Virus record (IMG/VR): IMGVR_UViG_2541047938_000006
Length of the DNA: 64,000 nt
Source: a virus
Lineage: Duplodnaviria; Heunggongvirae; Uroviricota; Caudoviricetes
Reading direction: 5' to 3' (one strand)
Shown here piece by piece: positions 59,868-61,940 of this stretch (its first letter is position 1; every line of letters starts with the position of its first letter). The translations under genes and the position numbers were made by a program. A model generated the notes under the pieces. It searched no databases. It worked only from the letters and a program-made list of their open reading frames with translations, and was not told the origin of the DNA.

Positions 59868-61940
59868 ATGAGCGCTGATAAACAGACTTTTGCACTACAC
59901 TGCGAAGCAAAAAACGATAAAGTCAGAAAACGCCTTGGCATCAAAGGCGGTTTTTTCTGGACCGAGGCCAGAAAACTTTCTGTCGCAGTTTCCCGCTGCA
60001 TTGCAGCCATGGACGATGCAGGCTACGACGAGGATGATTTCAAAAAACCCGTTCGCGTAAATTTCCCCGTCGTGAATGACCTTCCACCGGAAGGCGTGTT
60101 TGATACTGAATTCTGCAACCGCTATGAAAAAGGCGGTAACGATGGCATCACCATGATGGCTATCCCCTTCGATGACAACATCAACGGTGAAGATGCCACA
60201 ACTGCTGGCGATGACAACGATAACCTGGACGGAACTATTCCGGATGATGTGGAGAAAAGCGAATCCCCGGACAGCGACGATGACTGTTCTGAGTGTGAAA
60301 TTCCCGTCGCCACTCTGAGCCTTACTCATCGCTTCCTTCACCTCTTCTTATTCAGCAAAGATGAAGATGGAAAATACCGGCATCACGCCACACCAGAACA
60401 ACGCAATAACGTGATCCGTATGGAGATGGACACAGAGGACAGTTACCTTCAGAGCCTGCTTACTGCTGTGCGCGCCGCACATCATGAACTGGATAAACTG
60501 ACGAACTATCACCTTAGTCGCCTGGCTGAATCTGTAGGGAAAGCATTCCCCCACTCTGCAAATCATCGCATCAGCCCGGCTGAATTCGACAAGTTCATTT
60601 CCACCTGGATGAAAACTGACTACCTTGATCAGGGCCTGCTGACAAAAGAATGGCAGAACGGAAATTATGTTTCAGGCATTACCCGTACGCCTTCCGGTGC
60701 TAACGCTGGCGGCGGAAATCTTACCGATCGTGGTGAAGGATTCAAACATGATAAGACATCACTCGCACGAGATGTAGCCACCGGCGTTCTGGCCCGTTCA
60801 ATGGATGTGGATATTTATAACCTGCACCCAGCACACGCAAAACGCGTTGAAGAAATCGTGTCAGAGAATAAGCCGCCCTTTTCTGTTTTTCGCGACAAAT
60901 TTATCGCCATGCCCGGTGGGCTGGATTATTCCCGCGCCATTGTGGTGGCTTCCGTGAAAGAAGCACCAATCGGCATTGAGGCCATCCCGGCACGCGTGAC
61001 TGAATATCTCAACAAAGTGTTGACCGAAACCGATCACGCTAACCCGGATCCGGAAATCGTGGAAATTGCCTGCGGTCGCTCATCAGCACCGATGCCGCAG
61101 CGCGGAACAGCAGAAGGAAAACATGGCGATGAAGAAAAGCAACAAGCATCGGACACAATGGCTAATGAACAGGCAGCGCCTGAATCAGTGGAAGAAATTC
61201 CAGTTAAACATAATGAGGACACGCAATCACTGGAAAATGTCTCATCTGTAGAAACGAAATACCAGGAACTGAGGGAGGAACTCAATAAAGCCAGGGAAAA
61301 CATCCCCCCAAAAAATCCAGTCGATGCCGACAAATTACTGGCTGCCTCGCGTGGAGAATTCGTTGAAGGCATCAGTAACCCTGCTGATCCGAAGTGGGTG
61401 AAGGGGATCCAGACTCGCGACACTGAGGACCAGAATCAGTCCAAAGTGGAACAAATTGCCCCAGAAGCGGGACAAAACAGCCCGGATACGCAACAAAACG
61501 GGTCAGAAGAGCAACAGCCAGGGCCAGTAGCGCAACCGGAGCTGGAAAAAAACTGCCGCGTCTGTGGTCAGACTGGCGGGGGTAACTGCCCTGACTGTAG
61601 TGCGGTAATGGGCGATAGCACTTACACAGAAACTTTTGGAGAAAATGACGCCGCTGATGGAGAAGACTCAGCACAAACTGAGGAGAAGATCATTCAGGAA
61701 AACTCTGTTGATGCCGCTCAGGAGGGCGAAACCGTTGTTCAGAACGAGCCAGGCAGTGATACGTCCGGCGATGACGCCAATTCTGAGCCAGTAACTCTCG
61801 ACTGGAAAAGACAGCTCGTGATTGCCGCCGTCTATGGTTTGTGCGCCAACCCCGCATGTATAGCCACAGCGCCAGCAATCCCTGATATCGCCATCATGAT
61901 TGCCAACAGGCTTGAAAATTTCGGAGGTGATAAATCATGA
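59868..61940 (+). CDS. Large acidic early-left protein (690 aa) with C-terminal zinc-ribbon-like motif
   Basis: Long Asp/Glu-rich [19 protein letters not shown] motif; stop overlaps gam start. Confidence 0.5.

Follow-up and report, generated by a model that had tools for sequence, protein, structure and literature searches.

The N-terminal region of RecE, some 600 residues long, alters the outcome of recombineering in linear-linear cloning, and its role has been open since RecE was characterised. Two reviews from 2023 (PMC11611040, PMC11610958) call the function of this region unknown or unclear, and report that its presence in the full-length protein boosts recombination between linear DNA molecules. 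Nuclease-less proteins named RecE-2 are listed at the ‘Rec module’ position of lambdoid early-left operons, according to a recent survey (PMC12315714, Genome Res 2025), which also reports DnaQ-like nucleases at that position. Here we describe a gene for a 690-residue acidic protein that lies directly upstream of gam in the early-left operon of a Caudoviricetes virus (IMG/VR record IMGVR_UViG_2541047938_000006); the whole stretch of 64,000 nucleotides that was analysed is referred to below as the window. We show that this gene is a stand-alone, non-nuclease N-terminal RecE region, in which an acidic disordered linker and a conserved helical tail of 45 residues replace the PD-(D/E)XK nuclease.

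The gene begins with ATG and ends with TGA, the stop sharing an ATGA overlap with the ATG of the next open reading frame (ORF; ..AAATCATGAATG..). By chance alone, the window would be expected to hold about 7.5e-9 ORFs of this length, and the reality of the gene is also backed by hundreds of homologues and by purifying selection, measured as the ratio of nonsynonymous to synonymous substitution rates (dN/dS). Over the gene, the window matches a prophage of Escherichia coli SCU-104 at 100% identity, phage PhiR5_2 at 97.6% and Shigella phage 75/02 Stx at 88.7%. A first-pass annotation of this DNA had described a large acidic ORF in the variable region of the early-left operon, with a stop overlapping the gam start and paired CxxC motifs near the C-terminus, and this description was borne out. 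The protein has a pI of 4.58, with 124 D+E against 68 K+R residues; the overlapping ORF is identified as Gam by its match to PF06064; and the cysteines form the pattern C563-x2-C566-x7-C574-x2-C577, with an additional CxxC at residue 140. In this lambdoid operon an N-like antiterminator (57243-57647), several small ORFs, a KilR-type kil and a 128-residue gene lie upstream of the 690-residue gene, and gam-bet-exo lies downstream.

The same annotation held that no function could be assigned, which stands for the biochemical function, unreadable from the sequence, but not for the family. Residues 55-197 match PF06630 (Exonuc_VIII, the RecE N-terminal region) with 48.5 bits, against a cut-off of 25. 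Longer profiles are matched only in part: PHROG 607 over positions 1-618 of 883, and NCBIfam NF007259, the exonuclease VIII equivalog, over positions 1-598 of 877, with a score of 740 bits that lies below the cut-off of 1269. As a reference for direct comparison we used a full-length Rac-type RecE of 889 residues, encoded next to recT (locus L002). Residues 1-601 of the window protein and 1-578 of this RecE are 62% identical, the CxxC-x7-CxxC motif included, and residues 255-415 are almost identical to Rac RecE; residues 1-583 are the part that we count as RecE N-terminal region, and in the alignments homology to RecE stops near residues 583-600. The cysteine motif is an inheritance from RecE, conserved in the Rac-type protein, and not a special trait of this gene.

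In the true RecE, our searches readily found the nuclease, with PF12684 at residues 638-873 and PDB entry 3H4R at residues 628-889. The same Pfam search did not find the PD-(D/E)XK nuclease (PF12684) in the 690-residue protein, comparison of which with PDB sequences gave no match at E<=1, and so none to 3H4R. Nor does the predicted structure contain a nuclease fold beyond residue 415, where there are only disorder, short helices and the tail hairpin. GenBank and RefSeq nevertheless label the gene ‘exodeoxyribonuclease VIII’ or ‘RecE family exodeoxyribonuclease’, and neither label is borne out by the domains present. Were the label correct, the protein would be an active RecE enzyme, as its naming in both databases and its PF06630 match might suggest; but the domain that defines the enzyme is missing, the equivalog profile is matched below its cut-off and in its N-terminal part alone, and the body lacks a conserved catalytic constellation. 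Family-wide, the conserved positions are for the most part hydrophobic or structural and form no catalytic set, and the candidate of an enzyme hidden in the body was rejected on that ground. Domain content contradicts the annotated exonuclease reading, to which we give hardly any chance at all: on its recognisable domains, the protein is not exonuclease VIII, and 5'-3' dsDNA exonuclease activity would not be expected of it. The surroundings differ as well. In locus L002, recT comes directly after the true recE, whereas recT is not immediately downstream of the window gene; gam, bet and exo stand there instead, and exo is the sole recognisable recombination nuclease of the operon.

Because an exhaustive search of 1.84 billion cluster representatives returned only 204 relatives, the RecE N-terminal family can be called small. 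Its members carry the same body with different C-terminal parts. The body is fused to the PD-(D/E)XK nuclease in a short or a long form (L002, P0119), or to a DEDD, Rv2179c-like 3'-5' exonuclease, PF16473 (L004, L005). The latter fusion is common in E. coli prophages (5001-7544 in L004 and 5001-7454 in L005), and in these two loci no other large early-left gene precedes xis-int and no annealase is nearby. Seven further proteins (P0127, P0142, P0179, P0190, P0200, P0223 and P0262) end in a module of about 250 residues that closes with ...YLEGRLRRL... and is neither PD-(D/E)XK, nor DEDD, nor the tail of the window protein. That tail ends about 27 of 90 diverse family members, which we refer to as the tail class; membership of the tail domain is a criterion defined in the present analysis, by alignment of residues 644-690 of the window protein with 21 distant members. 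The nuclease-less tail class is probably the RecE-2 of the survey cited above, and the window gene is a further member of a class already noticed but uncharacterised, and misleadingly annotated. Beyond the 2025 report, we define the tail domain, sort the family into architecture classes, profile selection along the gene, locate the mosaic junction, report structural searches with negative outcome and describe a linkage to the lambda Red genes that is specific to one lineage.

Selection was estimated by comparison with the homologue of Shigella phage 75/02 Stx, which is 88.7% identical (Table 1). Constraint is evident over the whole gene and in the core, and is strongest in the motif block at residues 481-520 and in the tail; the acidic linkers evolve much faster. 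Variants at 76-99% identity stay 663-700 residues long. The mosaic structure of the locus, in which Rac-like homology runs to 61615 and lambda homology begins at 61958, could be read as the trace of a dead recE fragment, left when lambda-type gam-bet-exo replaced the 3' end of recE together with recT. But purifying selection extends across the gene, tail included (dN/dS 0.07), the frame is intact in variants down to 76% identity, and the tail is conserved in other genera at 22-30% overall identity. The selection data contradict the idea of a dead remnant, which we regard as barely credible; to judge from these substitution patterns, this is a maintained, selected gene of an old and widespread architecture class.

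Table 1. Features of the 690-residue gene and of its neighbours in the window. Residue numbers refer to the 690-residue protein; pLDDT, predicted local distance difference test.
Feature	Coordinates	Strand	dN/dS	Evidence and properties
Rac-type kil (KilR)	59069..59290	+		RefSeq; phrog_294; 92% amino acid identity to the kilR beside a true recE
orf128, 128 residues	59374..59760	+		phrog_2016; no Pfam or PADLOC match; C-terminal CDCPEC motif
Whole gene, 690 residues, nuclease-less tail-class member of the RecE-N family	59868..61940	+	0.23	ORF; PF06630; NF007259
N-terminal alpha/beta domain, residues 1-100	59868..60167	+	0.19	pLDDT 85-98; net charge -1
Acidic disordered linker 1, residues 101-139	60168..60284	+		Net charge -15; pLDDT <50 at residues 103-138; hypervariable in alignments
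Helical core of the RecE-N body, residues 140-415	60285..61112	+		Confident fold in the AlphaFold2 model
Core, residues 255-415			0.125
Acidic, mostly disordered region with short conserved elements, residues 416-643	61113..61796	+	0.53-0.59 (linker parts)	Net charge -34; pLDDT mostly <50
Conserved motif block, residues 481-520	61308..61427	+	0.04	Low-confidence, disordered context in the AlphaFold2 model
CxxC-x7-CxxC zinc-ribbon-like motif, residues 563-577	61554..61598	+		AlphaFold2 pLDDT about 30-50
Acidic linker, residues 596-643			0.59
Mosaic junction, 342 bp	61616..61957	+		blastn: matches neither Rac/Qin-type recE nor lambda
C-terminal tail domain, residues 644-690 (47 residues)	61797..61937	+	0.07 at dS 0.39	Helical hairpin predicted at residues 646-683
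gam, 98 residues, GamS-size	61937..62233	+		PF06064, 216 bits
bet, 261 residues, RecT-family annealase	62239..63024	+		PF03837, 115 bits
exo, 226 residues, lambda exonuclease/YqaJ	63021..63701	+		PF09588, 101 bits; RefSeq ‘lambda exonuclease family protein’

Across 22 aligned tail-class proteins, with an overall identity of 22-30%, no segment is better conserved than the tail. Positions L650, A653, A654, G657, N661 and P662 are invariant in this alignment, and the class consensus reads LTYxQQLTIAALQGLCANPA...DDIPxMAxxLA. Searched against PDB sequences, the tail profile gave only weak and presumably spurious matches, to a designed helical repeat (E 0.006) and to a spidroin N-terminal domain (E 0.012), and a tblastn search with the tail across 50,697 phage records recovered the same type of gene alone. 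A membrane anchor was considered and rejected as a property of the class, since the window tail scores 1.75 in a 19-residue Kyte-Doolittle scan but only 2 of the 22 members reach 1.6, the median being 1.0. An origin in the lambda sequence upstream of gam (kil and the GamL extension) was likewise set aside, there being no nucleotide similarity and lambda homology starting only 21 nucleotides inside gam.

Small ‘tail-only’ proteins were considered as independent genes and rejected, most being fragments or frameshifted ends of the long gene. Three Serratia prophages (L007, L008 and L009; 7001-7240) have a 79-residue ORF that is essentially the tail alone, placed after a DUF1482 gene and before xis-int; it may be a functional mini-protein or a deletion remnant. 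In an Enterobacter locus (L006), a 638-residue YdfE_N/YdfE_C protein (5044-6972) is followed by a continuation with the tail in another frame (6872-7165), a break that may mark a frameshift or a pseudogene or stem from a sequencing error. This locus shows the tail combined with a different, YdfE-type N-terminal body. The ydfE gene of E. coli K-12, a Qin pseudogene cut by IS2E, occupies the equivalent operon position; K-12 YdfE itself was discarded as a direct homologue, having no BLAST similarity to the window protein.

An AlphaFold2 model built with a 90-sequence alignment has a mean pLDDT of 72 and divides the protein into folded and disordered parts. Residues 1-100, which are nearly invariant across E. 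coli relatives, and residues 140-415 are predicted to fold at a pLDDT of about 90-98, with values down to 85 in residues 1-100. Within the disordered stretch that follows, a helix is predicted at residues 455-477, and a motif at residues ~489-510 (61332-61397) recurs in Rac RecE and in several tail-class proteins whose overall identity is only ~25%; it has the look of a short linear motif through which a conserved partner could be bound. E. coli relatives and Rac RecE keep the CxxC-x7-CxxC motif; P0120 has lost it by deletion, and distant tail-class members lack it. The tail hairpin is modelled with only moderate confidence (pLDDT 50-69). Foldseek searches with the model against PDB and against BFVD returned nothing at E<=1e-3.

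The acidity of the protein had been taken as a hint of DNA mimicry, a reading for which we found no positive support. The charge sits in predicted disordered, fast-evolving linkers (-15 and -34), and the folded parts are near neutral (-1 and -6); the tail is neutral and hydrophobic. Neither Pfam nor structure searches revealed sequence or fold similarity to Ocr, ArdA or Gam-like proteins, and no PADLOC defence model matched the protein.

The kil of the window is of the Rac KilR type rather than lambda Kil, which makes the operon Rac-like in its upstream half; gam-bet-exo, the downstream half, is lambda-like, with 91.6% nucleotide identity to lambda. In blastn comparisons, Rac/Qin- and DEDD-type homology extends as far as 61615, and lambda homology sets in at 61958, 21 nucleotides inside gam; the junction between them encodes the 60-residue acidic linker 2, the 47-residue tail and the first seven codons of gam. 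The gam gene is a short form, the 40-codon N-terminal extension of the annotated 138-residue gam of lambda having no counterpart. orf128 lies between kilR and the RecE-N/tail gene in L003 and L020-L024 and is absent in L025-L027. Elsewhere in the window, a giant ORF on the minus strand (6108-14486; 2791 residues, phrog_616) matches DarB-like antirestriction phrog_10089 over residues 2352-2679 (E = 5.7e-29).

Tail-class genes stand at the distal end of a lambdoid early-left operon in the window and in L003, L006, L010-L017 and L020-L027. We compared ten E. coli/Shigella loci, namely the window (identical to L001), L003 and L020-L027, which span 76-99% protein identity and two integration sites. 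All ten have the order kilR - (ydaE) - (orf128) - 690-residue-type gene - gam (98 residues) - bet - exo, with overlapping or abutting frames. In eight tail-class loci of Buttiauxella, Citrobacter, Lelliottia and Cedecea, a search of the surrounding 7 kb detected neither Gam, Bet and Exo nor RecT; there, one to three small ORFs separate the gene from the xis-int that comes after it. The linkage to Red is thus stable in one lineage and is not a property of the whole tail class. The invariable order in E. coli and Shigella, together with a tail that takes the place of the nuclease domain, could mean that the protein is half of a split RecE, the tail docking a separately encoded lambda Exo (or Bet) in trans to rebuild a body with a 5'-3' exonuclease. 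As a general rule such docking is contradicted by the loci of other genera, in which the tail is again the best-conserved segment with no exo, bet or recT nearby; the tail is also found on a YdfE-type body and as the 79-residue Serratia ORF without Red genes, and the lambda-like gam-bet-exo is a separate mosaic unit that starts inside gam. We consider a split RecE quite improbable.

The reading that we favour, as a tentative one that falls short of probable, is that the protein is a non-catalytic scaffold or accessory factor in phage DNA-end or recombination transactions. The RecE-N body would be a non-enzymatic targeting or scaffolding module with interchangeable C-terminal payloads, be they a 5'-3' exonuclease, a 3'-5' exonuclease, other modules or the tail alone. 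In this phage the protein would be expressed from pL together with Gam, Bet and Exo and would act beside them, without catalysis, at DNA ends or in recombination; the tail may provide self-association or contact with a conserved partner. The boost to linear-linear recombination given by the N-terminal region of full-length RecE, as described in the two reviews, is the closest precedent. A scaffold rather than an enzyme is suggested by the hydrophobic or structural nature of the conserved positions and by the way in which long disordered linkers and short conserved motifs accompany a folded body. A link to recombination is suggested by the stop/start overlap with gam, by the presence of gam-bet-exo next to the gene in 10/10 E. 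coli/Shigella loci at two integration sites, and by the place of the gene at the ‘Rec module’ position, where PMC12315714 has its RecE-2 proteins.

Several observations weigh against an accessory role in recombination. The eight loci in Buttiauxella, Citrobacter, Lelliottia and Cedecea have none of Gam, Bet, Exo and RecT in the 7 kb searched, and the Enterobacter locus with the tail on a YdfE-type body also lacks all four. A neighbouring recombinase is therefore not required, and the role may not be recombination. The DEDD-fused relatives, too, stand alone before xis-int. Finally, the structure of the tail is predicted with moderate confidence only (pLDDT 50-69), and a partner for it, or its self-association, is purely conjectural.

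It is these tail-class proteins without a neighbouring recombinase that make a host-directed role a serious rival. The protein would then neutralise a host DNA-binding enzyme or a defence system, independently of recombination and through nucleic-acid mimicry or through the tail and the motif. Tail-class genes that stand alone in other genera point to an autonomous function; the early-left position beside kil and the strong acidity fit such a role, and the disordered motif at residues 481-520, conserved throughout the family and with a dN/dS of 0.04, is what one would typically see where a conserved partner, possibly one of the host, is bound. The acidity, however, lies in the predicted disordered, fast-evolving linkers rather than in the near-neutral folded parts, no PADLOC model or Pfam anti-restriction family was matched, and relatives carry this body joined to DNA exonucleases, an arrangement suggestive of DNA transactions. 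A retron defence system has been reported as an interaction partner of RecE and of the neighbouring racC (bioRxiv 10.1101/2020.06.22.160242), but there RecE triggers the retron toxin-antitoxin system by degrading multicopy single-stranded DNA (msDNA), an effect ascribed to the nuclease, which is missing here. A profile search, which had been proposed as the means of deciding on host takeover, did name a family, but only by that part of it whose function is unknown. On balance, we hold a host-takeover or anti-defence role to be unlikely, though not lightly dismissed.

A broader proposal would treat body and tail as an autonomous phage module of undescribed fold, which uses the tail hairpin and the motif to bind a conserved factor of host DNA metabolism and carries nucleases as swappable payloads. 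If this were true, which we think decidedly unlikely, the nuclease-less tail class would occupy or redirect the host factor, and the difference between full-length RecE and the isolated nuclease domain in linear-linear recombination would be explained.

Among the prophage proteins of E. coli and Shigella, hundreds bear the name exodeoxyribonuclease VIII or RecE family exodeoxyribonuclease but have no nuclease domain, and a phage's recombination capacity inferred from such labels is wrong. Natural proteins that consist of the RecE N-terminal region only, that are under selection and that lie beside lambda Red also offer a clean handle on this region apart from the nuclease, and the tail and the disordered-region motif are concrete targets for finding partners.

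Compared with described systems, the protein resembles the nuclease-less RecE-2 of PMC12315714, of which it is a probable example and which that paper does not describe in detail, in lacking the nuclease and in its early-left position. Lambda Gam, T7 Ocr and ArdA are structured DNA-mimic proteins. The window protein is, like them, an acidic phage early protein, but its acidity is predicted to lie in linkers with pLDDT <50 (-15 and -34) and not on a folded, DNA-shaped surface. YdfE-type proteins (YdfE_N/YdfE_C) occupy the same operon position, and the one in L006 bears the same tail, but K-12 YdfE lacks BLAST-level similarity to the window protein and its N-terminal body is different or very distant. 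The DEDD-fused prophage proteins, annotated as ‘exonuclease’ or ‘3'-5' exonuclease’, are closer: their bodies are 58-72% identical over residues 1-592 and their genes likewise follow dicB or kil, but they end in a 3'-5' exonuclease domain and are directly followed by xis-int rather than by gam-bet-exo. With Rac RecE the protein shares the core at residues 255-415, the disordered-region motif, the CxxC-x7-CxxC motif and the operon position after kilR; it differs in having a 60-residue acidic linker and a conserved tail instead of the PD-(D/E)XK nuclease, and in being followed by gam-bet-exo instead of recT.

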